The position numbers and the translations under genes are program-made. Under the pieces are notes generated by a model, which saw nothing but the letters and a program-made list of their open reading frames with translations, ran no database searches and was not told the DNA's origin. Below are positions 5,996 to 32,807 of a stretch of DNA of 44,728 bases, in pieces; the stretch's first letter is position 1; each line of letters starts with the position of its first letter. This stretch comes from Escherichia phage ULINTec6. The stretch lies in sequence record MZ997840.1. The stretch is one strand, 5' to 3'.

Positions 5996-6011
5996 GTCTC
6001 ACATGTGAGAC
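5996..6011. repeat. 16-bp perfect palindrome GTCTCACATGTGAGAC (copy 1), immediately upstream of a phage promoter
   Basis: Read directly; one of six near-identical dispersed copies. Confidence 0.8.
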
Positions 6012-6013
6012 TT

Positions 6014-6036
6014 ATTTACCGGACACTATAGGATAG
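6014..6036 (+). promoter_or_regulatory. Phage RNAP promoter (ATTTACCGGACACTATAGGA)
   Basis: Match to the SP6-type consensus GACACTATAG with upstream ATTTAC. Confidence 0.75.
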
Positions 6037-6186
6037 CCGTCGGAGACGGGAAAGAAAGGGAAGATAAAGGATATAAAGGAAGTAATAGGTATTAAAGGTT
6101 ATATAGGTTATCTAGGAATACCTAGGAATACCTATTACCTTCTTCCTTCCTCTTATTACCACTTAGAGGAAGGGCAGACCTAGGTT
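6034..6186. other. Candidate primary origin of replication (purine-rich/AT-rich segment with inverted and direct repeats between two phage promoters)
   Basis: ggaaagaaagggaagataaagg purine tract, inverted repeat gaagtaataggta ... tacctattaccttc, direct repeat aggaatacct x2; sits between RNAP and gene 1.1 as the T7 primary origin does. Confidence 0.45.
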
Positions 6187-6202
6187 GTCTCACATGTGAG
6201 AC
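6187..6202. repeat. 16-bp palindrome GTCTCACATGTGAGAC (copy 2)
   Basis: Read directly; again followed by a promoter-like sequence. Confidence 0.8.
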
Positions 6203-6207
6203 TTCGT

Positions 6208-6230
6208 ATTTACCGGACAGTATAGATAAG
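6208..6230 (+). promoter_or_regulatory. Phage promoter variant (ATTTACCGGACAGTATAGATAAG)
   Basis: One substitution in the core (GACAGTATAG); precedes the gene 1.1-like ORF. Confidence 0.5.
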
Positions 6231-6255
6231 ACTAACTTACTTTGGAGATTTAACC

Positions 6256-6393
6256 ATGCGTAACGTAGAAAAGATTACCCGTAGAAGCCGTCATGAGTGC
6301 GATGTAGATATTAGCACCCTTAAGAATCGTGCCAAAAAGTGGGTACAACAACGCGGCGGTGTCAATCGTAATATGAAACGTAATTGGAACTAA
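6256..6393 (+). CDS. T7 gene 1.1-like small basic protein (45 aa)
   Basis: MRNVEKITRRSRHE... resembles T7 gp1.1 (MRNFEKMTKRS...) as I recall it; GGAG RBS; directly after RNAP and origin region. Confidence 0.6.
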   Translation: MRNVEKITRRSRHECDVDISTLKNRAKKWVQQRGGVNRNMKRNWN

Positions 6394-6403
6394 AGGGCAG
6401 ACC

Positions 6404-7557
6404 ATGGCTATTATTAATAACATCCCATGTCCTCAATGTCAGAAGAATGGACACGATAAATCAGGCAACCACCTTATGATATTCGAGGATGGTGCTGGGT
6501 ACTGTAACCGTGGTCACTTCCATGATAATGGCAGACCTTACTACCATAAGCCTGAAGGGGGCATCGAGATAACCGAGTTGCCTATTACTGGCAATATCAA
6601 ATATACACCTTCCCAGTTTAAAGAGATGGAGAAGGAAGGGAAGATTAGCGACCCTAAGCTACGCGCCATCGCACTTGGTGGTATGCGTATGAAAGACCGT
6701 TGGGAGGTTATGAATGAGCAAGAAAGGGCAGACCAAGAAACAGAGTGGAAACTTGATGTTGAATGGTTCCTCACGCTTAAGCGTAAGAATCTTGTTTCCC
6801 GACACATTCGCGGCGACATTTGCGCATTGTATGATGTACGGGTCGGACACGATGAAGAAGGTAGAGTCTCACGGCATTACTATCCACGCTTCGAAAAAGG
6901 TGAGCTAGTAGGCGCTAAGTGTCGCACATTACCTAAAGACTTTAAGTTTGGTCATTTAGGTAAACTATTTGGTATGCAAGATCTTTTCGGTATGAATACT
7001 TTGTCTCACGTGTTAGACAAGGGAAGACGAAAGGATTGCTTGCTTATTGTCGGCGGCGAACTGGATGCACTAGCAGCACAGCAAATGCTCCTTGATTCTG
7101 CCAAGGGTACTAAGTGGGAAGGCCAGCCTTACCATGTATGGTCTGTCAATAAAGGTGAGTCTTGCCTTGAAGAGATAGTACAGAACCGTGAACACATCGC
7201 CCAATTTAAGAAGATTATATGGGGTTTTGATGGAGATGAGGTAGGGCAGAAGCAGAATCAGCAAGCGGCTCGCCTGTTTCCTGGCAAATCCTATATCCTT
7301 GAGTACCCTTCTGGTTGCAAAGATGCCAACAAGGCATTGATGGCTGGCAAGGCTAAAGAGTTTGTTGATGCATGGTTTAATGCCAAGTCATCTGATGAAG
7401 TCTTTGGTAGCCAGATTAAATCTATCGCATCTCAAAGGGATAAGCTCAAGGCTGCACGTCCAGAGCAAGGACTATCATGGCCTTGGCCTAAGCTGAACAA
7501 GGTAACGCTAGGTATTCGTAAGAACCAACTTATCATTGTAGGCGCAGGCTCTGGCGT
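6404..7557 (+). CDS. Primase-helicase (T7 gene 4 family), exon 1: zinc-ribbon, TOPRIM primase and start of the helicase P-loop (GAGSGV)
   Basis: IPCPQCQKNGHDKSGNHL...YCNRGHFH zinc ribbon and LLIVGGELDALA / FDGDEVGQ / CKDANKALM TOPRIM motifs match T7 gp4; the reading frame hits a stop 7 codons after GAGSGV. Confidence 0.85.
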
Positions 7558-8344
7558 TAACATTAGCGCCGCCATGTAGTAATACATGGGCAATAATCGT
7601 GTGAACTCAGGGGAAGACTAGAACAGTTAATCCTGAGCCAAGCTAGGCACACCTCAAATTCAAAGGAGGTGTTATGCAATTTAAAGAAGTACCAGATCAC
7701 AGTAATTATATTTGTTATGAGAATGGCACGGTTGTTAATCGTAAGACTGGAAAGGTCTTGAAAGAAGATACAACTAACCGAGGTTATAAGCGGATTACAG
7801 TAAGCAAGGGCAACAAGGTAACACGTTGGAGTGTGCACCGTTTAGTTGCTTTACTGTTTATCCCTAACCCTCATAATTATGAAACTGTTAATCACATATC
7901 GGGAGATAAGACGGATAACTCTGTTAGTAATCTTGAGTGGATGAGCCAAGAACAGAACCAAGCCCATGCTAAATATACAGGACTGTGTCCTAAAGGTGAG
8001 GCTGTTGGCACTAATAAGTTCAAAGAGGCAACTATTCAGCAAGTGTGCAAGCTAATAGAGAAAGGTTTATCTCGCGGTGAAATTATGAAAGCAACGAGCA
8101 TCTCTAAAGCAACCTTTGATGACATTCGTAGAAGGAAGACTTGGAAGCACGTATCTTGTTCATATAAATGGTGACAATCTGGTGTGCCTAGAAGGTGCAA
8201 CGACTATCCCGAAAGGGAGTACAGCCAAGCGGCTGGAAGCGCACGACACCCATCGTGGGTGATGATATAGTCTGGTCTATATGGGGACATATAGCAGTTC
8301 ATAAGAGAACGGGCGTGGCTTAGCGAACCACGTCGAACATAACG
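7558..8344 (+). mobile_element. Putative self-splicing group I intron (787 nt) interrupting the helicase Walker A motif, with an HNH homing endonuclease ORF in the P6 loop
   Basis: Exon end GGCGU 7553-7557 pairs with GCGCC 7566-7570 (P1, U-G at splice site); P-like CTCAGG 7606-7611 pairs with Q-like AATCCTGAG 7629-7637; R-like GTGCAACGACTATC 8195-8208 and S-like GATGATATAGTCTGG 8261-8275 form P7 (GACTA/TAGTC); intron ends with G 8344; splicing restores GAGSGVGKTEF. Confidence 0.75.
7674..8174 (+). CDS. Intron-encoded HNH homing endonuclease (166 aa)
   Basis: HNH motif VHRLVALLFIPNP...VNHISGDKTDNSVSNLEWMSQEQN; own RBS AAAGGAGGTG; C-terminal helix-turn-helix-like region. Confidence 0.85.
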   Translation: MQFKEVPDHSNYICYENGTVVNRKTGKVLKEDTTNRGYKRITVSKGNKVTRWSVHRLVALLFIPNPHNYETVNHISGDKTDNSVSNLEWMSQEQNQAHAKYTGLCPKGEAVGTNKFKEATIQQVCKLIEKGLSRGEIMKATSISKATFDDIRRRKTWKHVSCSYKW

Positions 8345-9170
8345 AGGTAAGACTGAGTTCCTCCGCGAAGTGGTTAAACACCTCATTGAAGAGCACGGTG
8401 AATCTGTAGGCATCATTTCTACAGAAGACCCGATGGTCAAGGTGTCCCGTGCTTTTATCGGTAAGTGGATTGATAAGCGCATTGAGTTACCGCCAACCAA
8501 TGACCCGAAAGAAGACGGATACCGTGAGGTGTTCGACTACACCGAGGAAGAAGCTAACGCTGCCATTGATTATGTGGCTGATACAGGAAAGCTATTTGTG
8601 GCCGACCTAGAAGGCGACTATTCTATGGAGAAGGTAGAGCAAACTTGCCTAGAGTTTGAGGCTATGGGCATTTCTAATATCATCATTGATAACTTAACGG
8701 GGATTAAATTAGATGAGCGTGCTTTTGGTGGGAAGGTTGGTGCACTTGATGAATGCGTCAAACGAATTGGTACTATCAAAGACCGACATGCGGTTACGAT
8801 TTTCCTTGTCTCTCACCTTACACGTCCTCCGGCAAACCGTACCCAACACGAAGAAGGTGGCGAAGTTATCCTTTCTGACTTCCGAGGCTCAGGCGCTATC
8901 GGATTCTGGGCATCTTACGCCTTGGGGATTGAGCGTAATACAAGAGCTGAAACGCTTGATGAAAGGACTACCACGTACATCTCGTGTGTCAAAGACCGCG
9001 ATCAAGGTGTGTGGACTGGCACTAAAGTGAAACTTAAAGGGGATATGACCACAGGTAGGTTATTGGAATGGGAAGATCGTGTTTCTAGATTTGACACAGG
9101 TATACCTAAGGAGCAAAGTGTACCTGATGAAAACACAGGAGAGTTGAATGAAGAAACTTCAGAGTTTTGA
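8345..9170 (+). CDS. Primase-helicase exon 2: remainder of the helicase domain, beginning (A)GKTEFLREV...
   Basis: In-frame upstream extension of the 8370 ORF reads GKTEFLREVVKHL, the second half of the Walker A motif; DnaB-family blocks LVSHLTRP and ILSDFRGSGAIGF match T7 gp4 helicase; no canonical start codon of its own. Confidence 0.8.
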
Positions 9171-9639
9171 GGAAGCAGGATATGTCGTCAAGGAAGACGG
9201 CACGATCTTAAACCCAAAGGGTTTAGTCAGAAAACCATCCTTCGCAGGTAAGAATGTTAAATACTATGTAGTATCTTGGAGGGATAAACATTCTAAGAAA
9301 ACAATCATAGATTTAGTTCACAGATTGGTTGCTAAGAAGTACATACCTAATCCACATGGTTTACCAGAAGTTCATCATAAAGACTTTAATCCTCTTAATT
9401 GTCATAAGGATAATTTGGAATGGACAGATGGGAAAACCAATTGTGAGTATAGTTATTCCAGGGTAGAGGCTGCGCTTGCACGAAGTGCTACCTTACTCTC
9501 ACCTGATGGGGTTAAGCATGAGGTATTTAATGTTCGTAAGTTCTGCCGTGAACATAGCCTCAATCCACCTAGCATATTTGAAGTGCTTAGTGGTAAGCGT
9601 AAATCACACAAAGGATGGACTATTTACCGGACACTATAG
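9148..9639 (+). CDS. Free-standing HNH homing endonuclease (163 aa)
   Basis: HNH motif VHRLVAKKYIPNP...VHHKDFNPLNCHKDNLEW; GGAGAG RBS; overlaps the helicase stop; the last codons are encoded by the phage promoter at 9622-9644. Confidence 0.8.
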   Translation: MKKLQSFEEAGYVVKEDGTILNPKGLVRKPSFAGKNVKYYVVSWRDKHSKKTIIDLVHRLVAKKYIPNPHGLPEVHHKDFNPLNCHKDNLEWTDGKTNCEYSYSRVEAALARSATLLSPDGVKHEVFNVRKFCREHSLNPPSIFEVLSGKRKSHKGWTIYRTL

Positions 9640-9644
9640 AAGAG
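9622..9644 (+). promoter_or_regulatory. Phage RNAP promoter (ATTTACCGGACACTATAGAAGAG)
   Basis: Full consensus match. Confidence 0.8.
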
Positions 9645-9673
9645 ACAAACTTTGAAGATGAACAGGAGTTTTA

Positions 9674-9817
9674 ATGGAAATTATTAAACCAGTATTGAAT
9701 ATCGGTATTGAGATCCTATTCATGCTTGTGATCGCAGATTATGCTGCACGAGTGAAACTTATCGTTGCATCTGGTTTTATGATGTCAATGTTCTTTATTG
9801 TAACACGCCTTATCTAG
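9674..9817 (+). CDS. Small hydrophobic membrane protein (47 aa)
   Basis: AGGAG RBS 6 nt upstream of ATG; predicted protein almost entirely hydrophobic; below ORF-track cutoff. Confidence 0.3.
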   Translation: MEIIKPVLNIGIEILFMLVIADYAARVKLIVASGFMMSMFFIVTRLI

Positions 9818-9834
9818 TGTATTTATCAGGGCTT

Positions 9835-9850
9835 GTCTCACATGTGAGAC
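9835..9850. repeat. 16-bp palindrome GTCTCACATGTGAGAC (copy 3), extended stem gcttgtctcaca/tgtgagacaggc, followed by TCTTATT
   Basis: Read directly; hairpin plus U-rich tail is terminator-like. Confidence 0.8.
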
Positions 9851-9889
9851 AGGCTCTTATTAAGTACATTAAATAACTGGAGATTGATT

Positions 9890-10612
9890 ATGTATAAATT
9901 AGTATTGAATGCAGGTGATTATGTTCGTAACATCAATGAAGCCTCACGTCGTTATCGTTGCCGTGGTGTAGTAGCTCGTGTAAGTGAGAACATGTATCAT
10001 GTAGAATATGATGATGGTATTAAGGCTTCTTATCACAAGAAAACCGCACATAAATATCTTGAAAAGGTTGTAGAGGTAAACAATCAATGTAAGTGCATAC
10101 ATGATGAGGTTTGCGATAAGTGTGCACGTCAGGTAGTTAAAGCCTTTACCTTTGCTCAACGCTATGGTTCTATGTATGGTGCTGGTAACAAGACCCTTGC
10201 AGAAGCAGCTTGGAAGACATTGCAGTTTGAGCGTTCAAATGGACGACGCACCACACTTAAGAAAGAGCGCCGCAATGTAATCACTGGTAAGACTCAAAGT
10301 GAGATGATTAAGCAATATGGCACTGCATTAGGTGTTACACAGTTCAATACTCGTGCATTGGGTAAATCCACAGGGCAAGCTATGGTGAAAATTGGTGAAG
10401 CTATGCTGCACCCAAATGTGCCTGTGCGAATCTTGGATGTTGACCATGCAATCACAGAGCATGGCACACCACGGCGTGTAGCTAATAATCATTTCGCCGA
10501 CACTATAGAAGGCATTATTCATAAGCAAGGGTTGAAAGGTCTTCACATCTTAAATGGTGAAGAATTACTGTACCTACCTATCGTTACTGAAGAAACATAC
10601 GTGAATATCTAA
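9890..10612 (+). CDS. Hypothetical protein (241 aa)
   Basis: ORF track, start adjusted to ATG 9890 after CTGGAG RBS; no confident family assignment. Confidence 0.55.
   Translation: MYKLVLNAGDYVRNINEASRRYRCRGVVARVSENMYHVEYDDGIKASYHKKTAHKYLEKVVEVNNQCKCIHDEVCDKCARQVVKAFTFAQRYGSMYGAGNKTLAEAAWKTLQFERSNGRRTTLKKERRNVITGKTQSEMIKQYGTALGVTQFNTRALGKSTGQAMVKIGEAMLHPNVPVRILDVDHAITEHGTPRRVANNHFADTIEGIIHKQGLKGLHILNGEELLYLPIVTEETYVNI
10491..10512 (+). promoter_or_regulatory. Promoter-like sequence inside a CDS (ATTTCGCCGACACTATAGAAGG)
   Basis: Core GACACTATAGAAG intact, upstream half diverged; within ORF 9890..10612. Confidence 0.35.
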
Positions 10613-10622
10613 GGAGTTAATC

Positions 10623-10841
10623 ATGACTAAGGTATTAATTTATATGCGTGGACCTCATAAATGCTATGCAGTTGTAGCACCAGATGGTGTTAAGACCTAT
10701 GGTACTTCAAAGGGGTTTGCATTAATAGGTGCCCGTCTTAGTGCAAGTTTTCAGATGGAACTTTTCGGTCATTTGACTGAAAAAGAGTTCCGTGAGGATT
10801 TTAAAGTTGTTGGCAGCTTTATGGTGAAACATGCAAAATAA
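10623..10841 (+). CDS. Hypothetical protein (72 aa)
   Basis: ORF track; GGAG RBS upstream. Confidence 0.45.
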   Translation: MTKVLIYMRGPHKCYAVVAPDGVKTYGTSKGFALIGARLSASFQMELFGHLTEKEFREDFKVVGSFMVKHAK

Positions 10842-11040
10842 ACACAGTCTTAAGATGTTTGATGGTCACGAAGATCTGCAAGCACAAATTACTAATCAAG
10901 CCTTCCTGTTTGCACAGTTAACTATGGCTGAAGCAAAGAAGAATAGTCTGACGCGTGAGCAGGTTATCAAGGAGGCAACTTGGGAGCCACACCAAGGTAA
11001 ATATATGGGCCAGAAATTAACTGTAACACGCAGTCGATAA
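10831..11040 (+). CDS. Hypothetical protein (69 aa)
   Basis: ORF track; start overlaps the preceding stop. Confidence 0.45.
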   Translation: MQNKHSLKMFDGHEDLQAQITNQAFLFAQLTMAEAKKNSLTREQVIKEATWEPHQGKYMGQKLTVTRSR

Positions 11041-11050
11041 GTAAAGGGTT

Positions 11051-11066
11051 GTCTCACGTGTGAGAC
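11051..11066. repeat. Palindrome variant GTCTCACGTGTGAGAC (copy 4), extended stem ggttgtctcac/gtgagacagcc, followed by TTTCATCAT
   Basis: Read directly. Confidence 0.7.
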
Positions 11067-11097
11067 AGCCTTTCATCATATTGATTGGAGGTGCATT

Positions 11098-11205
11098 ATG
11101 CCACGTGATTATGATTCTGATTGGGACTATTATGACTCAATGAATCCAAAACCCGAACGTTCAGATGATTACTACGAAACAGAGGCAATGTATGAAGACT
11201 ATTAA
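11098..11205 (+). CDS. Small acidic hypothetical protein (35 aa)
   Basis: GGAGGTG RBS then ATG; below ORF-track cutoff. Confidence 0.25.
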   Translation: MPRDYDSDWDYYDSMNPKPERSDDYYETEAMYEDY

Positions 11206-11410
11206 ATTAAGCAAGGTTTGCTCTTGCGGTAAAGGCTATCGCAGTCGTATTGATGGTAAGTGTGGACATTGTAGGTCTAAGAAAGAGGCTGCTTTGTTTG
11301 ACAAGTACCACAATGAATTAGCCTATAACCACCCACATCTAACACCTAATTCTTTATTAGGACTTGGTTATAGGGCTAAATACTTTGGAGCAATCTATGA
11401 AATCAATTGA
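11192..11410 (+). CDS. Small Cys-rich (zinc-ribbon-like) protein
   Basis: CSCGKGYRSRIDGKCGHC motif; in-frame ATG 11192 with GAGG RBS preferred over the track start at 11165. Confidence 0.45.
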   Translation: MKTIKLSKVCSCGKGYRSRIDGKCGHCRSKKEAALFDKYHNELAYNHPHLTPNSLLGLGYRAKYFGAIYEIN

Positions 11411-13943: not shown

Positions 13944-14041
13944 TGGACAGGCTTGATATTGTTTGCTTATTCTTTACCTTCTTTCTTTCTTATATTCCTT
14001 ATGCTTGCTTGCTATGGAAGTATGCGATTAGATATACCTGA
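13943..14041 (+). CDS. Tiny hydrophobic ORF (32 aa)
   Basis: Hand translation; start overlaps the DNAP stop; speculative. Confidence 0.2.
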   Translation: MDRLDIVCLFFTFFLSYIPYACLLWKYAIRYT

Positions 14042-14062
14042 TGAAGAGGAGGGTTACGATTG

Positions 14063-14161
14063 ATGCAGACATCTTTTATCATTCTTGGGACCATATTATT
14101 TATGGTAGTATTCTGGTCTTTCTCTGGCATTGACCCAGATTGTGATGGTAACTACGACTGA
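14063..14161 (+). CDS. Tiny hydrophobic ORF (32 aa)
   Basis: GAGGAGGG RBS upstream; hand translation; speculative. Confidence 0.25.
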   Translation: MQTSFIILGTILFMVVFWSFSGIDPDCDGNYD

Positions 14162-14229
14162 GTTATACTCAAGGTCACTTACGAGTGGCCTTTATGAATA
14201 ACTTATTCCTACTTATTTTGTCTAACATG

Positions 14230-14252
14230 ATTTACTGGACACTATAGAAGGA
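14230..14252 (+). promoter_or_regulatory. Phage RNAP promoter (ATTTACTGGACACTATAGAAGGA)
   Basis: Full consensus match. Confidence 0.8.
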
Positions 14253-14316
14253 AAGCCTAGGTAATCTAGGTTTATAAGGTAGTATAGGTAATTAAGTAAA
14301 TATAGGAGATATAAAT

Positions 14317-14694: not shown

Positions 14695-14700
14695 GGAGTT

Positions 14701-15000: not shown

Positions 15001-15021
15001 TTACTGGACACTATAGAACAA
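14999..15021 (+). promoter_or_regulatory. Phage RNAP promoter (AATTACTGGACACTATAGAACAA)
   Basis: Consensus match. Confidence 0.75.
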
Positions 15022-15969: not shown

Positions 15970-15978
15970 GGAGGGCTG

Positions 15979-16197: not shown

Positions 16198-16198
16198 A

Positions 16199-16214
16199 GT
16201 CTCACACGTGAGAC
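16199..16214. repeat. Palindrome variant GTCTCACACGTGAGAC (copy 5), just upstream of a phage promoter
   Basis: Read directly. Confidence 0.7.
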
Positions 16215-16229
16215 AACTAGGTGTCCGGT

Positions 16230-16252
16230 ATTTACTGGACACTATAGAAGAG
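16230..16252 (+). promoter_or_regulatory. Phage RNAP promoter (ATTTACTGGACACTATAGAAGAG)
   Basis: Full consensus match. Confidence 0.8.
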
Positions 16253-24628: not shown

Positions 24629-24633
24629 TCAGT

Positions 24634-24656
24634 ATTTACTGGACACTATAGAAGGG
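24634..24656 (+). promoter_or_regulatory. Phage RNAP promoter driving the capsid gene (ATTTACTGGACACTATAGAAGGG)
   Basis: Full consensus; transcript starts with the stem-loop gggagaaatgtctccc, analogous to the T7 gene 10 leader. Confidence 0.85.
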
Positions 24657-24704
24657 AGAAATGTCTCCCTAAATTATCAATTTGATTTATAAGGAGGTTT
24701 ATTA

Positions 24705-25910: not shown

Positions 25911-25915
25911 TACCT

Positions 25916-25950
25916 ATGCCCTATCTACCCTGCGTAGGTAGGGTTCTTTT
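25916..25950 (+). terminator. T-phi-like terminator after the capsid gene
   Basis: Hairpin ccctatctacc-ctgcgta-ggtaggg followed by TTCTTTTT. Confidence 0.55.
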
Positions 25951-25964
25951 TGTTAGGAGGGTTC

Positions 25965-26702
25965 ATGCCTGTAATTAGACAAACCAGTAAAGTAGGACAT
26001 ATGATGGAAGATGTGGCCTTCCAGATTATTGATAGTAAGCTGGAAGCGGTAAACTTGTGTATGCGAGCTATTGGTCGTGAGGGTGTGGACTCTCTCGACT
26101 CAGGTGACTTGGACGCAGAAGACGCAAGCAAGATGATCGACATCGTATCCCAGAGGTTCCAGTACAACAAAGGAGGTGGCTGGTGGTTCAATCGTGAACC
26201 AAACTGGCAGATTGCACCTGATACCAATGGTGAAGTCAATTTACCTAACAACTGCCTAGCAGTATTGCAGTGTTACGCTTTGGGTGAGAAGAAAGTGCCC
26301 ATGACTATGCGAGCAGGTAAGCTCTACTCTACATGGAGTCATACCTTTGATATGCGTAAGCATGTGAATGCTAACGGTATGATTCGTCTTACCTTACTCA
26401 CCTTACTTCCATATGAGCATCTACCTACTAGTGTAATGCAGGCTATTGCCTATCAAGCTGCTGTAGAGTTTATTGTGTCTAAGGATGCAGATCAGACTAA
26501 GTTAGCCACTGCACAGCAGATTGCCACTCAGCTTCTTATGGATGTGCAATCAGAACAAATGTCACAAAAGCGATTGAATATGCTTGTGCATAATCCTACG
26601 CAGCGTCAGTTCGGTATTATGGCTGGTGGTTCTCAGAATGTACCTGCTTACTCTCATTCACCATATGATAGTTGGACTCTTCGTCCGTGGGAGGATCGGT
26701 AA
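25965..26702 (+). CDS. Tail tubular protein A (T7 gene 11 family)
   Basis: Synteny directly after capsid; AGGAGG RBS then ATG 25965; size near T7 gp11. Confidence 0.75.
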   Translation: MPVIRQTSKVGHMMEDVAFQIIDSKLEAVNLCMRAIGREGVDSLDSGDLDAEDASKMIDIVSQRFQYNKGGGWWFNREPNWQIAPDTNGEVNLPNNCLAVLQCYALGEKKVPMTMRAGKLYSTWSHTFDMRKHVNANGMIRLTLLTLLPYEHLPTSVMQAIAYQAAVEFIVSKDADQTKLATAQQIATQLLMDVQSEQMSQKRLNMLVHNPTQRQFGIMAGGSQNVPAYSHSPYDSWTLRPWEDR

Positions 26703-29104
26703 TGGAAGTACAAGGTTCATTAGGGAGGCAAATCCAAGGGATTAGCCAGCAACCTCCAGCAGTACGTCTTGATGGTCAATGCACGACTATGGTGAACATG
26801 GTTCCCGATGTAGTGAATGGGACTCAATCCCGCATGGGTACAACTCACATTGCTAAGCTCTTGGATGAAGGTACAGATAATATGGCAACGCACCATTATC
26901 GCAGGGGCGAGGGGGATGAAGAGTATTTCTTCACCTTAAAGAAAGGGCAAGTGCCAGAGATATTTGATAAGCATGGACGCAAGTGCAATGTCGTCTCTCA
27001 AGATGCACCTATGACCTACCTTTCTGAAGTTGTCAGCCCTAGGGAAGATGTGCAATTCATGACTATAGCTGATGTTACTTTTATGCTTAACCGTAGGAAA
27101 GTGGTTAAAGCTAGTAATAGGAAGTCACCTAAAGTCGGAGATAAAGCCATTGTGTTTTGTGCATATGGTCAATATGGTACATCTTATTCTATCATAATTG
27201 ATGGAACTACAGCTGCTAGTTTTAAAACACCAGACGGTGGAAGTGCAGAACATGTTGAACAAATCCGAACGGAACGTATCACTTCTGAGTTATATTCCAA
27301 GTTACAGCAATGGAGTGAGGTAGGTGACTATGAAATACAAAGAGATGGTACGAGCATATTTATAGAGAGACGCGATGGTACAAGTTTCACAGTAACAACT
27401 ACCGATGGTGCAAAAGGTAAGGATTTAGTGGCTATCAAGAATAAAGTTAGCTCTACTGACCTACTCCCTTCTCGTGCGCCTGCTGGCTATAAAGTGCAAG
27501 TGTGGCCTACTGGCAGCAAACCTGAGTCTCGTTACTGGCTGCAAGCTGAGCCTAAAGAGGGAAACCTTGTGTCTTGGAAAGAAACAATAGCTGCTGATGT
27601 ATTACTTGGGTTTGATAAAGACACCATGCCTTACATTATTGAACGTACAGGTATTATTGACGGCATAGCTCAATTCACGATAAGACAAGGTGATTGGGAA
27701 GATCGTAAAGTAGGGGATGACTTGACCAACCCTATGCCCTCTTTTATTGATGAGGAAGTGCCCCAGACAATAGGTGGAATGTTCATGGTGCAGAACCGCC
27801 TATGCTTTACAGCAGGTGAAGCGGTTATTGCTTCTCGTACATCATACTTCTTCGATTTCTTTCGTTATACGGTTATCTCTGCATTGGCAACTGATCCATT
27901 TGATATTTTCTCAGATGCGAGTGAAGTCTACCAGCTAAAACATGCAGTAACCTTAGATGGCGCTACCGTGTTGTTCTCTGATAAGTCACAATTCATTTTG
28001 CCAGGAGATAAACCGCTAGAGAAATCCAACGCCCTACTCAAGCCTGTCACAACATTTGAAGTCAACAATAAAGTTAAACCAGTGGCTACTGGTGAGTCTG
28101 TAATGTTTGCTACGAATGACGGTGCTTACTCTGGTGTCCGAGAGTTCTATACAGACTCTTATAGTGACACTAAGAAGGCACAAGCAATCACAAGTCATGT
28201 GAATAAACTTATCGAAGGTAACATTACCAACATGGCAGCAAGTACCAATGTCAACCGATTGCTTGTCACTACAGATAAATATCGTAACATAATTTACTGC
28301 TACGATTGGTTATGGCAAGGCACAGATCGTGTACAATCAGCATGGCATGTATGGGAGTGGCCTATGGGTACAAAGGTGCGAGGTATGTTTTACTCTGGTG
28401 AATTACTTTATCTACTCCTTGAGCGAGGCGGTGGCGTCTATCTGGAGAAGATGGACATGGGGGATGCACTAACCTATGGTTTGAATGACCGCATCCGAAT
28501 GGATAGGCAAGCAGAGTTGATCTTCAAGCATTTTAAAGCAGAAGATGAGTGGGTATCTGAACCACTTCCTTGGACTCCTACTAACCCAGAACTTTTGGAT
28601 TGCATCTTAATAGAAGGGTGGGATTCATATATTGGAGGTTCTTTCCTATTCAAATATAACCCTAGTGATAATACCTTGTCTACAACCTTTGATATGTATG
28701 ATGATAACCTCGTAAAAGCGAAGGTTATTGTTGGGCAGATTTACCCTCAAGAGTTTGAACCTACACCTGTAGTCATCAGAGACAGGCAAGACCGTGTATC
28801 CTATATTGATGTACCTGTTGTGGGATTAGTTCACCTTAATCTTGATATGTATCCTGATTTCTCCGTGGAGGTTAAGAATGTGAAGAGTGGTAAAGTACGC
28901 AAGGTGCTAGCGTCAAACCGTATAGGTGGTGCTCTCAACAATACAGTAGGTTATGTTGAACCAAGAGAGGGTGTCTTCAGATTCCCACTGAGGGCTAAGA
29001 GTACGGATGCTGTTTATCGTATTATTGTAGAATCACCTCACACATTCCAGCTCCGCGATATTGAGTGGGAAGGGAGCTACAATCCAACCAAAAGGAGGGT
29101 CTAA
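26702..29104 (+). CDS. Tail tubular protein B (T7 gene 12 family)
   Basis: N-terminal GISQQPP and C-terminal FRFPL...WEGSYNPTKRRV parallel T7 gp12 (GISQQPD ... YRFPV...WEGNYLRRSSGI). Confidence 0.88.
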   Translation: MEVQGSLGRQIQGISQQPPAVRLDGQCTTMVNMVPDVVNGTQSRMGTTHIAKLLDEGTDNMATHHYRRGEGDEEYFFTLKKGQVPEIFDKHGRKCNVVSQDAPMTYLSEVVSPREDVQFMTIADVTFMLNRRKVVKASNRKSPKVGDKAIVFCAYGQYGTSYSIIIDGTTAASFKTPDGGSAEHVEQIRTERITSELYSKLQQWSEVGDYEIQRDGTSIFIERRDGTSFTVTTTDGAKGKDLVAIKNKVSSTDLLPSRAPAGYKVQVWPTGSKPESRYWLQAEPKEGNLVSWKETIAADVLLGFDKDTMPYIIERTGIIDGIAQFTIRQGDWEDRKVGDDLTNPMPSFIDEEVPQTIGGMFMVQNRLCFTAGEAVIASRTSYFFDFFRYTVISALATDPFDIFSDASEVYQLKHAVTLDGATVLFSDKSQFILPGDKPLEKSNALLKPVTTFEVNNKVKPVATGESVMFATNDGAYSGVREFYTDSYSDTKKAQAITSHVNKLIEGNITNMAASTNVNRLLVTTDKYRNIIYCYDWLWQGTDRVQSAWHVWEWPMGTKVRGMFYSGELLYLLLERGGGVYLEKMDMGDALTYGLNDRIRMDRQAELIFKHFKAEDEWVSEPLPWTPTNPELLDCILIEGWDSYIGGSFLFKYNPSDNTLSTTFDMYDDNLVKAKVIVGQIYPQEFEPTPVVIRDRQDRVSYIDVPVVGLVHLNLDMYPDFSVEVKNVKSGKVRKVLASNRIGGALNNTVGYVEPREGVFRFPLRAKSTDAVYRIIVESPHTFQLRDIEWEGSYNPTKRRV

Positions 29105-29826
29105 TGGCTATAGGTTCAGCCGTTATGTCTGGTATGTCTTCTATTGGTAGTATGTTTGCAGGCAGCGGTGCAGCAGCCGCTGCTGGAGGCACTGCCGCAG
29201 GTGGCGGAGGTTTGCTAGGTTCACTAGGTGGATTCCTAAGTGGTTCCACTGCTGGCTTCTCTAATGCTGGCCTCCTTGGTGCTGGCCTTCAAGGTTTAGG
29301 CTTGATTGGTGATCTCTTTGGTGGAAGTGATGAAGCCAAGGCAATGAAGAAAGCACAAGAAGAGCAATGGCGGCAGCAGCTTATTGCTACACAAGAGGCG
29401 TACAAGACAGTGGCAGACGCAGAGCGTTCTGCTGCTAAACAATATCATGCAGATGCAATAAGCAATCAGGCTTCACTACTACAGCAGCGAGCACAGGTTG
29501 CATTACTAGCAGGTGCTACTGGTACTGGTGGTAACTCTGTATCTTCTATGCTGAATGACTTAGCAGCAGAGGGCGGAAGGAACCAGAGTACAATTATTGA
29601 TAACTATGAGAATCAGAAGATTAACTTCACTAATCAGCTTAAGTCCATCCAGCGAGGTGGGCAAATGCAGATGCGTGAGTTTAAGAAACCTTCTGCTGTG
29701 AGCACCTTGGTTCAAGGTATCCCAAGTCTGGCTTCTGCTTATGTAACTGGTAGCAAGTCGGGTATGGCTTTAGGTAAAGCTCTAACGGATTCTCGTACAT
29801 ATTCATCTGGAACAAGAGGTATTTAA
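29104..29826 (+). CDS. Internal virion protein (Gly/Ala-rich)
   Basis: Position after the tail tubular genes; Gly/Ala-rich N-terminus; AGGAGG RBS then ATG 29104. Confidence 0.65.
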   Translation: MAIGSAVMSGMSSIGSMFAGSGAAAAAGGTAAGGGGLLGSLGGFLSGSTAGFSNAGLLGAGLQGLGLIGDLFGGSDEAKAMKKAQEEQWRQQLIATQEAYKTVADAERSAAKQYHADAISNQASLLQQRAQVALLAGATGTGGNSVSSMLNDLAAEGGRNQSTIIDNYENQKINFTNQLKSIQRGGQMQMREFKKPSAVSTLVQGIPSLASAYVTGSKSGMALGKALTDSRTYSSGTRGI

Positions 29827-32774
29827 TGGCAATTGAGCGACAAGCAGTACAAGGTCTGCCACAAGTGCAGGCCACTTCTCCTAATGTCATGACCTTTGCA
29901 CCTCAGCAAGTTGGAGGTGTGGAGGCTGGCGTAGCTTCTACCTCCGGTAGTCGATTTATCGAAGACCTTATTCGAGCAGCCAGTAGTGTAGCTGATGTAA
30001 CCACTGGTATCCTTAATCAAAAGATTGAGGAAGATAAGGTTGTTCAAATGGAACGGGCATATAATGGACTGATGCCTTCTGAGGATGCAACTCGTGGTGG
30101 CGCTCGTGCTAACATGCTTGTCAAAGCTCAACTGCTAGCTAATGATGAAGCAGCACGAATGAAAGACATGGCTACTCGTTTCCAAGGAACAGATGACGAG
30201 TGGACACAACTCATGGTTGACTCTCGTAATGAGATGCAGAATAAGCTGTTCCAGCAATACCCTGAGTTGCAAGGTGACAAAGATACTATGCGTATGGTCA
30301 CTAATGTCTTCCAAGAACAGCAGCCGCAGATTTGGGCCACACGAACCCAGCATAAACTTGACCGTGAACAAGCAGACCGAGAAGATACATTCGATGGGCG
30401 AGTGGCCTCCACTTGGGATTCTAGTATTGACCCAGAAGCATCGGGATATGCTTTACAGGAACGAATCCGTGAAGGTCTTACCCAAGGTTTGCTTCCAGAA
30501 CAGATGCATAAGAAGCTAGTTGAACGGGCTATCTCTCTTGCACAAGGCGGTGATATCAGCATGGCTGAAGCCTTGAAATATGTTAAGGATGACAAGGGTG
30601 TTTCTGTATATGCAAAGAACCCGCAGCTTATCACAGCTATCACTAATGGTAATGCAGCTTGGGCTAGAAATAATGTAGCTGATGTAACTCGTATGTCTTT
30701 CGAAGTTAAAGAGTCCTACCTTGCAGGTGATTTAACTGATGAAGAATTATTGGAACGAGCACAGCACATTAATAGTCTGACAGGTAACTCTGTGTTCTCT
30801 AATCCAGAACTTGAAGCACTCATGCGTCAAAGAGCTAAACAAAATGCAGAGCTAGGTGCAATGCAGGATATGCGACGTGAACTTTACTCTGACCGCATGA
30901 CTGGCTTCCAAGGTAAGACAGATAAAGAGAAGAAAGCCTACATTGATGTTATCAAACAGGATAGTCAACTCTATGCAGACCAGCAAATTAAGCAACGAGG
31001 TTTGGACCCTTACAGCCAAGAGGCTGAAGCTATCCGTGGTGCAGTAGAAGTGCAGCGCCTGCAATTCATGAACTCCAAAGGCTTAGTGGATGATACTTTT
31101 GAGTCTCGTATCAAAGCCATGGAGTCTATGCTATCACCTGAGCACTTCGCTAAAGGCGAACCACAGGAGTTAATGACTATTCGTCAGTTGTGGGAACAGT
31201 TACCAGAAGAAAGCCGAGGTGTCTTTGGTGATACGGTGAATGGCTATATGGATAACTACAACACTGCATTACAAATGGGAGAGACGCCTTTGCAGGCTGC
31301 AAGGTTTGCCCGTGAAGCACAGCAGAAATTCTCTCGTACTGAGAAAGAAACCAAGAAGTTCAACTCAGCTATTGGAGATGCACTGGATGAGGTATCGGGT
31401 GCTGGCTGGTTTGATGGTAAAACCGAAGTGTCTGACTTAGGTAAATCTATTGCAGAAGAAGAGTTACGAGCTAAGGCCAATATGCTGTGGTCTAGCGGTA
31501 TGCGTAACATGGATTCCATCAAGAAGGCTTTAATTACTTGGGGCAATAAACGCTACACTCAATCAGAGGATGCAAAGACTTCCGGTGGTTATTTCATTAA
31601 AGGTGATTACACTTCTGCATCTGACATGCTTATGTCTGTTGGGAAAGGTGTAAACCCTACCGATGTACCTCTGGCGCTTGGTAGGTATGTAGAAACACAA
31701 ATGCCAGAATTGAAGAAGGAACTTCAAGAGTGGGAAACTAAGGATGATGTATACATTGATTACAATGAACAGAAAGGTACTTTCGTGATTCGTGCTGGTG
31801 CAGCAGGTCGCCCTCTTTCTGGAGTAATCCCTGTCACCTCTTTAGATACCACTTCACTGCTAGACTCTGCCTATCAGAAGAAAGTAGAAGAACGAGATAA
31901 AGGTGAATATGTTCACCCATATCGTACAGATATCGGTGCACAAGAACCCATGCCAGCTAAGCCAACTGCCAAGGATATTGGTAAATTTGGACTAGCTAAT
32001 TTCCTCATGTCTTCTGCCTTTGCTTCTGGTGAGAATCTACCTTCTAACTTCGAGATTAACTATAGAGGCAATATGCAACAATTCTATGACAAGCTAGCTA
32101 TGGCTGAGAATGGCGATAAGCTGGGCTTCAACAAAGCCACAGGAACCTTCACACCGTACAAAGATGCACATGGCGAGTCGGTAGGCTACGGTCACTTCCT
32201 TACGGAAGAAGAAAAGAGAAATGGGTACATTAAGATTGGCGACGAACTGGTTCCGTATCGCGGCTCTATGTCTCAGCTCACTGAGAGTAAGGCCCGTGCT
32301 CTTATGGAACAAGATGCCAAGAAGCATGTACCTCCAACTCGTGATTGGAAAATCCCATTCGACCAGATGCATCCGGCACAGCAGCGCGGTTTAATGGATT
32401 TAACCTATAACTTAGGTAAAGGTGGAATCCAGAATGCACCGCGTGCTCTTGCTGCATTCAAGGCAGGTAAGCTTACAGAAGGCTTTATCGAAATGCTGGG
32501 TACTGCATCCAGTGAAGGTAAGCGTATTCCTGGTTTACTGAAGCGACGCGCTGAGGCTTACAATATGGCATCTGCCGGTGGTGTACCTAAGATTACCGAA
32601 GTAGAGACTCGTGAAGATGGGTCTATGTGGGTTAAGTTCGGTGGACCTATGCCAGCAGGTTCTGTATCTGCATGGACTCATAAACGTATTGGCGCTGATG
32701 GCTGGTATCAGGTTTATGAGGCTGCACCTACCAAGTTAGCTAAAGGCTCTAAGGTAGGTAAAGTTAAGTTGTAG
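29826..32774 (+). CDS. Internal virion (ejection/core) protein with C-terminal lysozyme-like domain
   Basis: 982 aa; C-terminal GESVGYGHFLT and QQRGLMDLTYNLGKGG resemble the T4-lysozyme (GH24) fold signature (TEGYYTIGIGHLLT ... ALINMVFQMGETG). Confidence 0.75.
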   Translation: MAIERQAVQGLPQVQATSPNVMTFAPQQVGGVEAGVASTSGSRFIEDLIRAASSVADVTTGILNQKIEEDKVVQMERAYNGLMPSEDATRGGARANMLVKAQLLANDEAARMKDMATRFQGTDDEWTQLMVDSRNEMQNKLFQQYPELQGDKDTMRMVTNVFQEQQPQIWATRTQHKLDREQADREDTFDGRVASTWDSSIDPEASGYALQERIREGLTQGLLPEQMHKKLVERAISLAQGGDISMAEALKYVKDDKGVSVYAKNPQLITAITNGNAAWARNNVADVTRMSFEVKESYLAGDLTDEELLERAQHINSLTGNSVFSNPELEALMRQRAKQNAELGAMQDMRRELYSDRMTGFQGKTDKEKKAYIDVIKQDSQLYADQQIKQRGLDPYSQEAEAIRGAVEVQRLQFMNSKGLVDDTFESRIKAMESMLSPEHFAKGEPQELMTIRQLWEQLPEESRGVFGDTVNGYMDNYNTALQMGETPLQAARFAREAQQKFSRTEKETKKFNSAIGDALDEVSGAGWFDGKTEVSDLGKSIAEEELRAKANMLWSSGMRNMDSIKKALITWGNKRYTQSEDAKTSGGYFIKGDYTSASDMLMSVGKGVNPTDVPLALGRYVETQMPELKKELQEWETKDDVYIDYNEQKGTFVIRAGAAGRPLSGVIPVTSLDTTSLLDSAYQKKVEERDKGEYVHPYRTDIGAQEPMPAKPTAKDIGKFGLANFLMSSAFASGENLPSNFEINYRGNMQQFYDKLAMAENGDKLGFNKATGTFTPYKDAHGESVGYGHFLTEEEKRNGYIKIGDELVPYRGSMSQLTESKARALMEQDAKKHVPPTRDWKIPFDQMHPAQQRGLMDLTYNLGKGGIQNAPRALAAFKAGKLTEGFIEMLGTASSEGKRIPGLLKRRAEAYNMASAGGVPKITEVETREDGSMWVKFGGPMPAGSVSAWTHKRIGADGWYQVYEAAPTKLAKGSKVGKVKL

Positions 32775-32791
32775 TACCTAACTCAAGGCTT

Positions 32792-32807
32792 GTCTCACAT
32801 GTGAGAC
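32792..32807. repeat. 16-bp palindrome GTCTCACATGTGAGAC (copy 6), extended stem, followed by TCTTTAT
   Basis: Read directly; between two internal virion protein genes. Confidence 0.8.

Follow-up and report, generated by a model that had tools for sequence, protein, structure and literature searches.

Known stem-loop elements

The RNase III signals of phage T7 (R0.3, R0.5, R1.1, R4.7 and R18.5) are intercistronic, located on the transcribed strand and often close to phage promoters, and have the common sequence CTCAAGG-[stem-loop]-CCTTTATGA. Internal loops limit RNase III to one cut, by which a protective 3' hairpin is left (PMC1540722). We analysed the complete genome of a K1E/K1-5-like Vectrevirus (Escherichia phage ULINTec6, MZ997840.1; the window, 44,728 nucleotides), which contains eight copies of a 16-nt palindrome, here numbered S0 to S7 from the left end. 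Its hairpins resemble the T7 signals in location, strand and nearness to promoters. S4, S5 and S7 share with them a bipartite hairpin with an asymmetric internal loop, and S7 also shares CUCAAGG…CCUUUAUGA. However, the upper stem is 13 bp here and about 10 bp in T7, and the apex is a fixed palindrome, identical across sites, whereas the T7 apices all differ; the palindrome motif was absent from T7 in a motif search. In addition, five copies stand alone without a T7-type lower stem or loop, and cleavage in the present phage is a prediction from sequence.

REP/BIME elements are short imperfect palindromes found after operon stop codons in enterobacteria, with a lineage-specific consensus and a role as 3' stabilisers of mRNA; RAYT transposases spread them, and their hundreds of copies lie at sites that are not orthologous. 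The palindrome is likewise short, dispersed and placed after stop codons, but its eight copies occupy fixed orthologous positions in a virus of 45 kb, in which no transposase was seen among the 10 ORFs scanned with Pfam. The PeSL (promoter-early stem-loop) cassettes of T4-type phages, said to have been described by Arbiol et al. in 2010, are reportedly repeated units of a near-identical stem-loop and a host sigma-70 early promoter between genes, which flank hyperplastic regions and are thought to carry genes between genomes. Here, by contrast, the promoter is of the type used by the RNA polymerase of the phage itself and accompanies only 3/8 copies. Tphi-type class I terminators of T7-like phages are also stem-loops on the transcribed strand at transcription-unit ends, but the palindrome copies lack a U run, and at least two of them must be read through.

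Copies of the palindrome in the genome

Through a pattern search of the whole window allowing up to three mismatches, we found GTCTCACATGTGAGAC at eight sites and confirmed that the repeat is real: 100 dinucleotide-preserving shuffles gave a mean of 0.18 matches (maximum 2), and eight was reached in 0/100. Exact copies are located at 5996, 6187, 9835 and 32792, copies with one mismatch at 291, 11051 and 16199, and one with two mismatches at 7003. The mismatch at 11051 and 16199 concerns the central bases (positions 8 and 9), in the would-be loop. All coordinates given by the first-pass annotation were correct, but it had counted six copies plus one degenerate copy, all intergenic, and had overlooked the copy at 7003, which lies within a gene.

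This copy, S3 (7003..7018, + strand, GTCTCACGTGTTAGAC), is included in the primase/helicase ORF 6404-7579 and is read as G TCT CAC GTG TTA GAC (S H V L D); the sequence itself shows that an in-frame TGA would arise here if the K1E-type palindrome were perfect. Pair 5/12 of S3 is C·T in 14/14 K1E-type contexts and fully paired in the SP6 and Kpp types, and the hairpin is extended by CUUU/AAGG. In K1E-type phages its left half has changed Asn to His at the cost of one base pair, which is unexpected under pure selection for pairing. Copies within genes were also found in SP6 (17752), Klebsiella phage Kpp-61 (18779) and Vibrio phage Vc1 (27874 and 30118).

At the left end, S0 (291..306, + strand, GTCTCACATGTTAGAC) is a degenerate copy with a C5·T12 mismatch, about 70 nt ahead of the first TTGACA-type early promoter (374-402). 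S0 is imperfect in most phages. Its orthologous position is occupied in K1E, K1-5, KAW1A4500, SP6 and Kpp-61, and an analogous position in Vc1; its consensus is inverted in SP6-type phages, with C·A on the + strand.

Conservation among related phages

The search of related phage genomes suggested by the first-pass annotation proved informative. All eight positions are orthologous in K1E, K1-5, KAW1A4500, SP6 and Kpp-61, spanning genera only about 70% identical, and no presence/absence polymorphism was seen among the relatives compared. The versions differ by paired substitutions (GTCTCAC..GTGAGAC, GTCTAAC..GTTGGAC and GTCCAAC..GTTGGAC). Phage Vc1 carries 9-10 copies of GTTTCACAnTGTGAAAC, in which C3-G14 is replaced by U-A. 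Over 224 contexts, G1, U2, A6 and C7 are nearly invariant.

A few discrete versions of the apex occur, each of them genome-wide, with the copies of one genome having the same version; copies of differing type within one genome were found in K1-5 (S5), CrRp3 (S4) and ACG-C91 (S7). The switch from version A to version B consists of exactly four paired bases between near-identical flanks, as seen at S7 between L234 and the window and also in prophage cassettes.

Bipartite hairpins and candidate RNase III signals

Three copies form the apex of bipartite hairpins on the + strand, each composed of a lower stem of about 9 bp, an asymmetric internal loop and a 13-bp upper stem. S4 (9815..9872, palindrome 9835-9850) is located between the small ORF/HNH region and gene 10, S5 (11031..11088, palindrome 11051-11066) between gene 11 and gene 12/DNA polymerase, and S7 (32772..32829, palindrome 32792-32807) between genes 35 and 36. 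The folding z-scores of the three sites are -4.75, -2.9 and -3.45, the first being that of S4 (-31.7 kcal/mol), whose consensus structure is kept in 9 phages. At S5, 98.8% of cells are paired and both sides have changed in 8/23 pairs; the covariation score was reached in 0/500 shuffles, and slid controls were 30-44% paired. Results at S4 and S7 agree, with compensatory changes in 8/22 pairs at S7.

S7 reads AACUCAAGGCUU-[GUCUCACAUGUGAGAC]-AGGUCUUUAUGAUAGG and carries the T7 consensus CUCAAGG…CUUUAUGA (as DNA CTCAAGG…CTTTATGA). A covariance model, built from five T7 RNase III sites only, matched S7 with 39.4 bits (E = 2.5e-7, positions 1-52 of 52) and its orthologues in SP6 and Kpp-61 with 49.3 and 44.4 bits. 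S4 (19.5 bits, E = 0.003, full length) and S5 (17.2 bits, E = 0.012) were the second and third best matches in the 10.5 kb searched, weak ones that appeared only with filters off. The copies at 291, 5996, 6187, 7003 and 16199 gave no match to this model; their stems of 6-8 bp are under the standard length of RNase III substrates.

A canonical T7-type RNase III signal with the apex GGUCACUUACGAGUGGCC and no palindrome was found at 14158..14207 (+ strand; 47.2 bits, E = 2e-9), with a near-identical site at 12223-12272 in SP6. As a comparator, this site shows that the palindrome is an addition to the apex.

By structure, and S7 also by sequence, S4 and S5 are candidate RNase III processing signals and S7 a probable one of the T7 type. 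The first-pass annotation had described three copies with extended stems followed by U-rich tracts. This holds as a description, the stems being the 13-bp upper stems, but what looks like a U-rich tract is no terminator tail: it corresponds to the CUUUAUGA-type sequence conserved in the 3' internal loop of T7-type RNase III signals.

Stand-alone copies and phage promoters

S1 (5996..6011), S2 (6187..6202) and S6 (16199..16214), all on the + strand, are stand-alone 6-bp hairpins, the first two exact. As had been noticed before, they are immediately upstream of phage promoters, ending 2, 5 and 15 nt before position -17 of the + strand promoters at 6014..6031 (ATTTACCGGACACTATAG), 6208..6225 (ATTTACCGGACAGTATAG) and 16230..16247 (ATTTACTGGACACTATAG). 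The window contains 12 matches to the phage promoter against 0.02 expected; the promoter scan found none in 24634-39493 and 11051-14230.

S1 is kept in 21 distinct contexts and follows the early terminator hairpin (5930-5953) by 43 nt. S2 is flanked on the left by CCTAGGTT, a sequence similar to the 5' half of RNase III signals. S6 begins 1 nt past the stop codon of gene 17, and a second hairpin, GTGTCCGGTATTTACTGGACAC (16221..16242, + strand), follows, whose loop and 3' arm coincide with positions -17 to -5 of the promoter; the region has z = -4.3, and compensatory variants exist in SP6 (GTGTCTCTTATTTAGGGGACAC) and Kpp-61.

Possible function of the palindrome

As RNA, the palindrome gives a 6-bp stem (GUCUCA/UGAGAC) closed by a C-R-Y-G tetraloop. 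In 146 distinct contexts of S1-S7 from IMG/VR relatives, pair 4/13 is U-A in 79, C-G in 51, U·G in 16 and C·A in none, and pair 5/12 is A-U in 67 and C-G in 64, with all 14 C·U cases belonging to the coding copy S3. The non-Watson-Crick pairs at 4/13 between 5996 and 32792 are U·G solely on the transcribed strand (16 vs 0), which favours a hairpin in a single strand over a duplex operator. A U·G pair just beneath the palindrome is also near-invariant at the three bipartite sites (25/25, 16/19 and 16/20). Tolerance of G·T would also be compatible with a single-stranded DNA hairpin.

We consider, with moderate confidence, that the palindrome is a transcribed RNA stem-loop which serves as punctuation in the long rightward polycistronic transcripts of SP6-like phages. 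Among the three roles proposed by the first-pass annotation, it is the RNA hairpin for processing that gained support, from the matches to the T7-site model, the compensatory changes in both stems of these hairpins and the transcribed-strand G·U wobbles. At the bipartite sites, host RNase III would make one cut, within or beside UAUGA in the 3' strand of the internal loop, comparable to T7 R1.1; the palindrome-capped hairpin might then remain as the protective 3' end of the upstream mRNA, and the ribosome-binding site directly after the lower stem might be released. The bare copies at 5996, 6187 and 16199, 2-15 nt before a phage promoter, would mark transcription-unit ends and might block 3'-exonucleases, weakly pause or terminate transcription, or insulate against read-through RNA. 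The copy at 7003 may be the same element kept imperfect by the coding frame, and that at 291 a degenerate or inverted version preceding the early promoters; with its consensus reversed in SP6, the left-end copy is anomalous for an RNA hairpin unless read leftward. RNase III has no need of a constant apex, as the apices of the T7 sites and of 14158 are different, and so processing does not account for the 16-nt identity. We infer that the apex shared in each genome reflects either a putative partner that recognises its sequence or homogenisation of the copies by templating.

A dimeric phage or host protein could instead bind the dyad GTCTCAC/GTGAGAC in double-stranded DNA and modulate promoters or another DNA transaction, but we regard such an operator as unlikely. 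The dyad is perfect over 16 bp, three copies abut phage promoters, and the palindrome is kept beside phage-type promoters in prophage cassettes; the discrete genome-wide types would be expected of a protein whose specificity and sites evolve together, the left half of S3 tracks the genome's type despite lost pairing, and intragenic copies occur (S3 and those of SP6, Kpp-61 and Vc1). However, a symmetric dimer on duplex DNA predicts no excess such as 16 U·G against 0 C·A at pair 4/13, the spacing to promoters is variable (2, 5 and 15 nt in the phage, 14 and about 3 nt in cassettes), three copies sit in RNase III-type hairpins with covarying flanks, and mixed types are tolerated in one genome. 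Through a Pfam scan of 10 mostly uncharacterised ORFs, no DNA-binding candidate was found beyond mobile HNH genes.

Intrinsic (class I) terminators or attenuators for phage or host RNA polymerase seem quite improbable. In a pattern scan, 5996 and 6187 are terminator-like (6 pairs, 4-nt loop and a T-rich tail, which is the promoter's ATTTA), the main E. coli cassette has a 13-bp stem and then CCUGUUUGAUUU, and in remote SP6-like contigs the palindrome adjoins a terminator after the capsid gene. But DNA polymerase after 11051 and genes 36-40 after 32792 have no promoter of their own, so termination there would have to be inefficient, and these downstream genes, which are essential, require read-through. 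No copy has a U run, the tail of the long versions being the conserved RNase III loop; the obvious terminator-like hairpins (5930-5953 and 16733-16760) differ in sequence; and the Klebsiella and SfIV cassettes place the palindrome between a T7-like promoter and an ORF. The view in the first-pass annotation that sequence identity argues against ordinary independent terminators is sound.

We also give little credence to mutational uniformity without function, arising by template switching, short-patch conversion or a small mobile palindromic element in loops and gaps. This could account for the four-base paired A-to-B switches within near-identical flanks, for S7, which resembles a canonical RNase III site such as 14158 whose apex has been lengthened by 16 nt, and for the presence of the element in unrelated temperate phages. 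It agrees poorly with eight positions orthologous across genera about 70% identical, with the lack of presence/absence polymorphism among the relatives, with copies sharing only 16-22 nt of homology and with the strong constraint on G1, U2, A6 and C7; no transposase-like gene was found among the 10 ORFs scanned with Pfam.

A single-stranded DNA hairpin that is extruded from the lagging-strand template and used in replication, for example as a signal for priming or loading or one associated with an origin, is very unlikely. The wobbles lie on the + strand right of about 6 kb and are reversed at the left-end copy of SP6-type phages, as expected for lagging-strand templates flanking an origin near 6 kb. 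Two promoters plus a long inverted repeat are enclosed by S1 and S2; this region corresponds in position to the primary origin of T7, which lies beside phi1.1A/B, and the palindrome travels with promoters. Yet the three long versions have homologues among RNA processing signals, palindromes hug stop codons and ribosome-binding sites in the manner of mRNA elements, the left-end copy is imperfect in most phages, and the T7 supergroup is not known to have a signal of this kind. As for a packaging or homing-endonuclease site, the remaining proposal of the first-pass annotation, nothing was found in its support.

Prophage cassettes

About 11% of complete E. coli genomes contain an unannotated prophage cassette with the order T7-like promoter, palindrome, SP6/K1E-type promoter and an ORF for a hydrophobic protein of 36-40 aa. 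The palindrome-plus-promoter unit also exists in prophages of E. coli, Shigella, Salmonella and Klebsiella. A 61-nt sequence, the S6 unit, is common to the phage and the E. coli cassettes, and the promoter at 16230..16247 is identical (18/18) to that of the E. coli cassette. The palindrome is 14 nt from the promoter in E. coli-type cassettes and, as read from the sequence, about 3 nt in Klebsiella-type ones. The palindrome stem of the main E. coli cassette is 13 bp long, with CCUGUUUGAUUU after it, and in the Klebsiella and SfIV cassettes the palindrome is located between the T7-like promoter and the ORF.

Copies of the palindrome in the genome

The window is a complete K1E/K1-5-like genome (genus Vectrevirus, SP6-like branch of Autographiviridae) with all genes on the plus strand, and most of a 10.6-kb stretch taken as a test was 92-95% identical to many E. 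coli K1 phages. Through a pattern scan for the palindrome GTCTCACATGTGAGAC with up to three mismatches, we found eight matches, located at 291 (one mismatch), 5996, 6187, 7003 (two mismatches), 9835, 11051 (one), 16199 (one) and 32792, while dinucleotide-preserving shuffles gave a mean of 0.18 matches and a maximum of 2. The matches were read on the plus strand of a site that is its own reverse complement, and at 11051 and 16199 the single mismatch is one of the two central bases. Every coordinate of the first-pass annotation was correct, but it had counted six copies plus a degenerate one and called them all intergenic, overlooking the copy at 7003, which is located within the ORF 6404-7579.

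The phage promoter ATTTAC(C/T)GGACACTATAG matched 12 times in the window against 0.02 expected, and the intervals 11051-14230 and 24634-39493 contained none. Three copies had been described as lying upstream of promoters, and those at 5996, 6187 and 16199 indeed end 2, 5 and 15 nt before one. No curated Rfam family reached its gathering score in the window (0 matches), and the palindromes carry no annotation in the records of K1E, K1-5, KAW1A4500 and SP6.

Conservation and base pairing

The search of related genomes that had been proposed as a check revealed the palindrome at the same eight places in all five genomes compared. K1E, K1-5 and KAW1A4500 have the motif itself there; in SP6 (Salmonella) and Kpp-61 (Klebsiella), which are about 70% identical to the window over a 400-nt test stretch after the polymerase gene, the palindrome has a different sequence, GTCTAAC-RY-GTTGGAC and GTCCAAC-RY-GTTGGAC, respectively. 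The sites are orthologous in these five genomes from three genera.

Three scans of IMG/VR gave 89 related stretches with 224 distinct motif contexts, 146 of which could be assigned to the places from 5996 to 32792. Among these 146, pair 4/13 was U-A in 79, C-G in 51, U·G in 16 and C·A in none, and pair 5/12 was A-U in 67, C-G in 64, C·U in 14 and A·G in one, indicating that the stem is maintained through compensatory change. The two central bases were always purine-pyrimidine (AT, GT, AC or GC) and varied freely even among close relatives. The sole non-Watson-Crick pair tolerated can form as a wobble in the transcribed strand, whereas the opposite strand would have a mismatch there. The C·U pair comes from the copy at 7003, read in the frame G TCT CAC GTG TTA GAC: a perfect K1E-type palindrome there would create an in-frame TGA, hence C·U is kept in 14 of 14 K1E-type contexts. 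In SP6 and Kpp-61 the same copy is perfectly paired through synonymous codons. The palindrome is best taken as an RNA stem-loop that SP6-like phages conserve.

The motif was absent from the SP6-like Vibrio phage Vc1, which has nine or ten copies of GTTTCACAnTGTGAAAC, with C3-G14 replaced by U-A and a loop one base longer. In phage T7 neither the motif nor any other recurrent palindrome was found, therefore the palindrome is not general to the T7 supergroup. The Vc1 record (our comparison sequence L281, NC_047746.1) assigns this phage to Drexlerviridae; its single-subunit RNA polymerase and T7-like gene order are those of an SP6-like podovirus, and the label looks like a taxonomy error. The Vc1 phage promoter is probably TAACCTACCCATTAGATAA.

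Extended copies and putative RNase III processing signals

In T7, RNase III processing signals are textbook elements in which a lower stem of about 9 bp and an upper stem of about 10 bp with its loop are separated by an asymmetric internal loop. When 100 nt around each copy were folded, those at 9835, 11051 and 32792 adopted one common shape (z-scores of -4.75, -2.9 and -3.45): 8-11 pairs make up the lower stem, above which come an asymmetric internal loop and an upper stem of 13 pairs topped by the palindrome. This bipartite T7-type architecture was present at 9815-9872, 11031-11088 and 32772-32829, and neither folding nor a covariance model detected it at 291, 5996, 6187, 7003 or 16199. In an alignment of 14 phages, 98.8% of the cells of the 11051 hairpin were paired and 8 of its 23 pairs had double-sided changes; its covariation score was reached by none of 500 shuffles, and sliding the partner by 1-3 columns gave 30-44% pairing. 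The 32792 hairpin showed compensatory changes in 8 of 22 pairs, and at 9835 the structure was maintained in a sequence too conserved for much covariation signal.

The T7 sites were folded at positions which we take to be those of Dunn and Studier 1983. They share CUCAAGG, a stem-loop and then CCUUUAUGA. This consensus is present at 32792 as CTCAAGG…TCTTTATGA (site sequence AACUCAAGGCUU-[GUCUCACAUGUGAGAC]-AGGUCUUUAUGAUAGG), and diverged forms were found at 11051 (AAGUAAAGGG…CCUUUCAUCAU) and 9835 (AUCAGGG…CUCUUAUUAAG). A covariance model trained on five T7 RNase III sites only matched the 32792 hairpin over its full length with 39.4 bits (E = 2.5e-7, 177 kb searched), its orthologues in SP6 and Kpp-61 with 49.3 and 44.4 bits, and 14158-14207, where there is no palindrome, with 47.2 bits. 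With filters off over 10.5 kb, the copies at 9835 (19.5 bits, E = 0.003) and 11051 (17.2 bits, E = 0.012) were the second and third best matches over 5900-16400, and all their pairs were standard. Thus the extended stems noted in the first-pass annotation are real, being the 13-pair upper stems, but the U-rich tract said to follow them is, from the T7-type consensus and the model matches, the 3′ half of the RNase III internal loop. Judged from fold and sequence, the three copies may be placed among the RNase III processing signals of the T7 kind, as a variant form of a known element type. T7 RNase III sites, too, adjoin promoters, and T7 site 18512 has a promoter within its apex.

Such internal loops restrict E. 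coli RNase III to one cut, and the 3′ hairpin left protects the upstream RNA (PMC1540722). In the window the host RNase III would cut once, on the 3′ side of the internal loop, and the predicted RNase III-dependent ends are inside …CUUUAUGA… at about 32822, 11080 and 9865. At 9835, 11051 and 32792, the Shine-Dalgarno sequence of the following gene marks the end of the lower stem's 3′ arm.

The stretch 14158-14207 (CTCAAGGTCACTTACGAGTGGCCTTTATGA), just upstream of the promoter at 14230, is a putative canonical T7-type RNase III signal with a near-identical counterpart in SP6. Neither this signal nor any other RNase III signal is annotated in the K1E, K1-5, SP6 and KAW1A4500 records. The four putative signals placed in the window (9815, 11031, 14158 and 32772) provide testable mRNA boundaries for therapeutic K1 phages. 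The three palindrome versions as exact strings returned nothing relevant from the literature, and the SP6-like genome papers searched do not mention the palindrome. No description of a palindrome or of RNase III in SP6, K1-5 or K1E, nor of a palindrome-capped variant of the T7-type signal, was found in the literature searched, although the primary genome papers (Dobbins 2004; Scholl 2004) possibly mention the former.

Bare copies and the copy at the left end

At 5996, 6187 and 16199 the palindrome lacks both a lower stem and paired flanks, and the T7 RNase III covariance model did not detect these copies over 5900-16400 with filters off. The copy at 16199 begins one base past a stop codon, and that at 5996 is located downstream of the early terminator hairpin 5930-5953. 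In remote metagenomic SP6-like contigs the same 16-mer was found right after stop codons or right before ribosome-binding sites, and elsewhere beside a terminator downstream of the capsid gene; the Vc1 variant has the same placement. Placement at stop codons and ribosome-binding sites follows a positional logic of the mRNA type. The copy at 291 precedes the first early promoter by about 70 nt, with a Vc1 counterpart in the same place, and in SP6-type phages it has the consensus of its genome in reversed orientation. Folding also predicted a long-range pairing between 5996 and 6187, to which we gave no weight because any two identical palindromes can pair.

Other readings of the palindrome

A hairpin formed in single-stranded DNA on the lagging-strand template would fit the polarity of the wobbles, including the reversed copy at the left end, and the copies at 5996 and 6187 flank the region presumably corresponding to the T7 origin; however, the homology to RNase III signals is not accounted for by such a hairpin. 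A duplex operator for a dimeric DNA-binding protein, which would be a dyad without strand polarity in a fixed position relative to the promoter, is disfavoured, as the wobbles are strand-polar (16 U·G against no C·A), the spacing to the promoter varies (2, 5 and 15 nt in the phage), five copies do not adjoin a phage promoter, and the palindrome is embedded in RNA processing signals. A functionless repeat that homogenises itself is difficult to reconcile with the retention of eight orthologous positions in different genera. An efficient intrinsic (class I) terminator would have a stable G+C-rich stem directly followed by a U run, and its release would make the downstream genes promoter-dependent. 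No copy has a U run, and the pattern scan gave 5996 and 6187 only as weak 6-pair candidates; at 11051 and 32792 an efficient terminator is excluded because read-through is obligatory for the DNA polymerase gene and genes 36-40, which have no promoter of their own; weak pausing or attenuation may still occur. A mobile palindrome of the REP/RAYT type, which would come with a transposase and with variable, non-orthologous insertion sites, does not fit, since the sites are orthologous in five genomes and no transposase was found by Pfam among 10 ORFs of the window.

The fixed apex

RNase III requires no particular apex, and we know of no property of this enzyme that explains a fixed 16-nt apex, which also occurs at the copies having no RNase III signal. 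The copies within one genome share one apex version, the versions being few and discrete, with off-type copies in K1-5 (at the 11051 place), CrRp3 (9835) and ACG-C91 (32792). At the 32792 place, one relative (L234) differs from the window in the four paired apex bases and in little else. In the K1E-type copy at 7003, the left half changes Asn to His and so matches the version of the genome, though one pair is broken. These shared versions, the off-type copies, the switch in L234 and the Asn to His change point to a partner that reads the sequence or to templated copying between the palindromes, so that a sequence-specific RNA-binding partner or templated homogenisation may lie behind the fixed apex. 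As candidates for a trans-acting factor, Pfam revealed only HNH endonucleases among 10 mostly uncharacterised ORFs of the window.

Palindrome-promoter cassettes in prophages

In about 60 IMG/VR stretches unrelated to SP6-like phages, one or the other version of the palindrome was found 14 nt ahead of a perfect K1E-type promoter, ATTTACTGGACACTATAG, which is identical to four promoters of the window. Downstream of this promoter are a leader, a strong ribosome-binding site and a 40-codon ORF encoding the hydrophobic peptide MFHSTSHQAVIMAASVCATDLFRFTLSLIHFYLTGSPLSF. The 121-nt core of this cassette was found in 595 of 5,426 complete E. coli genomes, unannotated, and sits in lambdoid prophages with the lysis genes on one side and the HNH/terminase genes on the other, oriented against the late operon. 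Two scans of species-representative genomes found no cassette.

Cassettes of the E. coli type lie at 4060-4330 of L121 (E. coli W224N chromosome, NZ_CP094339.1) and at 8300-8570 of another comparison sequence, L030 (minus strand), and the temperate Shigella phage SfIV has one at 480-750 (L282). They are arranged as a T7-like or degenerate promoter, then the palindrome, a promoter of the K1E or SP6 type 14 nt downstream of it, a ribosome-binding site and the hydrophobic 40-aa ORF. In SfIV the promoter is of the SP6 type, ATTTAGGTGACACTTTAG, and the stretch upstream of the palindrome is T7-like, CAATACGACTCACTAATGGGGAGG; peptides of the SfIV type are on record from E. coli and Salmonella enterica. 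The Klebsiella versions (L135, 5300-5680, minus strand; also sequences L203, L228, L157, L139, L164, L200, L209, L216 and L230) flank the palindrome with a near-perfect T7 promoter (21/23 by our own count) upstream and another promoter-like sequence downstream. They start with a hairpin, TTTGTCTCYTATAAGAGACAAA, followed by the T7-like promoter TAATGCGACTCACTATAGAGAGA, then GTCCAACRYGTTGGAC and ATTTAATAGTGGCCAGTATAGAAGG, and end with a leader and a hydrophobic ORF of 36-38 aa. The Klebsiella peptides are listed as 'hypothetical' in K. pneumoniae, in up to 1000 or more contigs, and also in Klebsiella phage RCIP0114. Pfam gave no match for the cassette peptide, and SP6-like phages and T7 contained no homologue of it.

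The cassettes show that the palindrome and a promoter move together as one unit and that the pairing is maintained outside lytic phages, with the same hairpin beside phage-polymerase promoters in prophages of these phages' own hosts. On one reading, the cassette would be a sensor that only an incoming phage polymerase transcribes, and a response of this kind would be a new and very simple sensing of virulent phages by the cell or the prophage. No polymerase-triggered prophage cassette was described in the literature searched. We might speculate, as a tentative and rather unlikely reading, that a dedicated SP6-group factor uses the palindrome as its recognition hairpin, and that palindrome and promoter form a portable unit captured by temperate phages of E. 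coli, Shigella, Salmonella and Klebsiella. In the captured unit the palindrome would lie between a T7-like promoter and an SP6/K1E-like one, all before a hydrophobic peptide of 36-40 aa, and the sensor would fire only when a virulent T7- or SP6-type phage delivers its polymerase. If true, the cassette would be an abortive-infection or hijacking device triggered by polymerase, of which the literature searched has no description.

Two or three copies of GTCTCACGCGTGAGAC or GTCTCACATGTGAGAC were also found in unrelated G+C-rich viral contigs (85 kb, 129 kb and another), at 2061-2159 in L079, 964-1019 and 3004 in L082, and 4197-4276 in L086. These copies lie within about 100 bp and have extended inverted repeats on their flanks; the arrays are probably unrelated and operator-like, having the 16-mer in common by chance.

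Other features of the window

The primase/helicase, a single ORF of 662 aa in K1E, is split in the window into 6404-7579 and 8370-9170. Between the two parts is an HNH endonuclease ORF with a helix-turn-helix domain (7674-8174), and a second, weaker HNH ORF follows them at 9148-9639. The HNH ORFs of this region (6404-9639) look like homing-endonuclease insertions.

Downstream of the RNA polymerase gene, between two promoters, a long purine-rich/pyrimidine-rich inverted repeat, GGGAAAGAAAGGGAAGATAAAGG … CCTTCTTCCTTCCTC, occupies 6032-6186, a position which we take to correspond to the primary origin of T7; the 336-nt region around it has a folding z-score of -4.8. The early terminator region after the same gene (5938-5989, 52 nt) is 88.5% identical to the 2.8-kb record Y00105.1 of temperate Shigella phage Sf6, and appears from this match to be a further small regulatory piece in common with temperate phages. 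Both genome ends (1-260 and 44400-44600) have arrays of short CTTAGT/CCTTAGT repeats, reminiscent of the short repeat arrays beside the T7 terminal repeats. Another inverted repeat, at 16221-16242, has a loop and 3′ arm formed by the -17 to -5 region of a promoter, and compensatory changes preserve its pairing in SP6 and Kpp-61, the promoters of which have a different specificity region.
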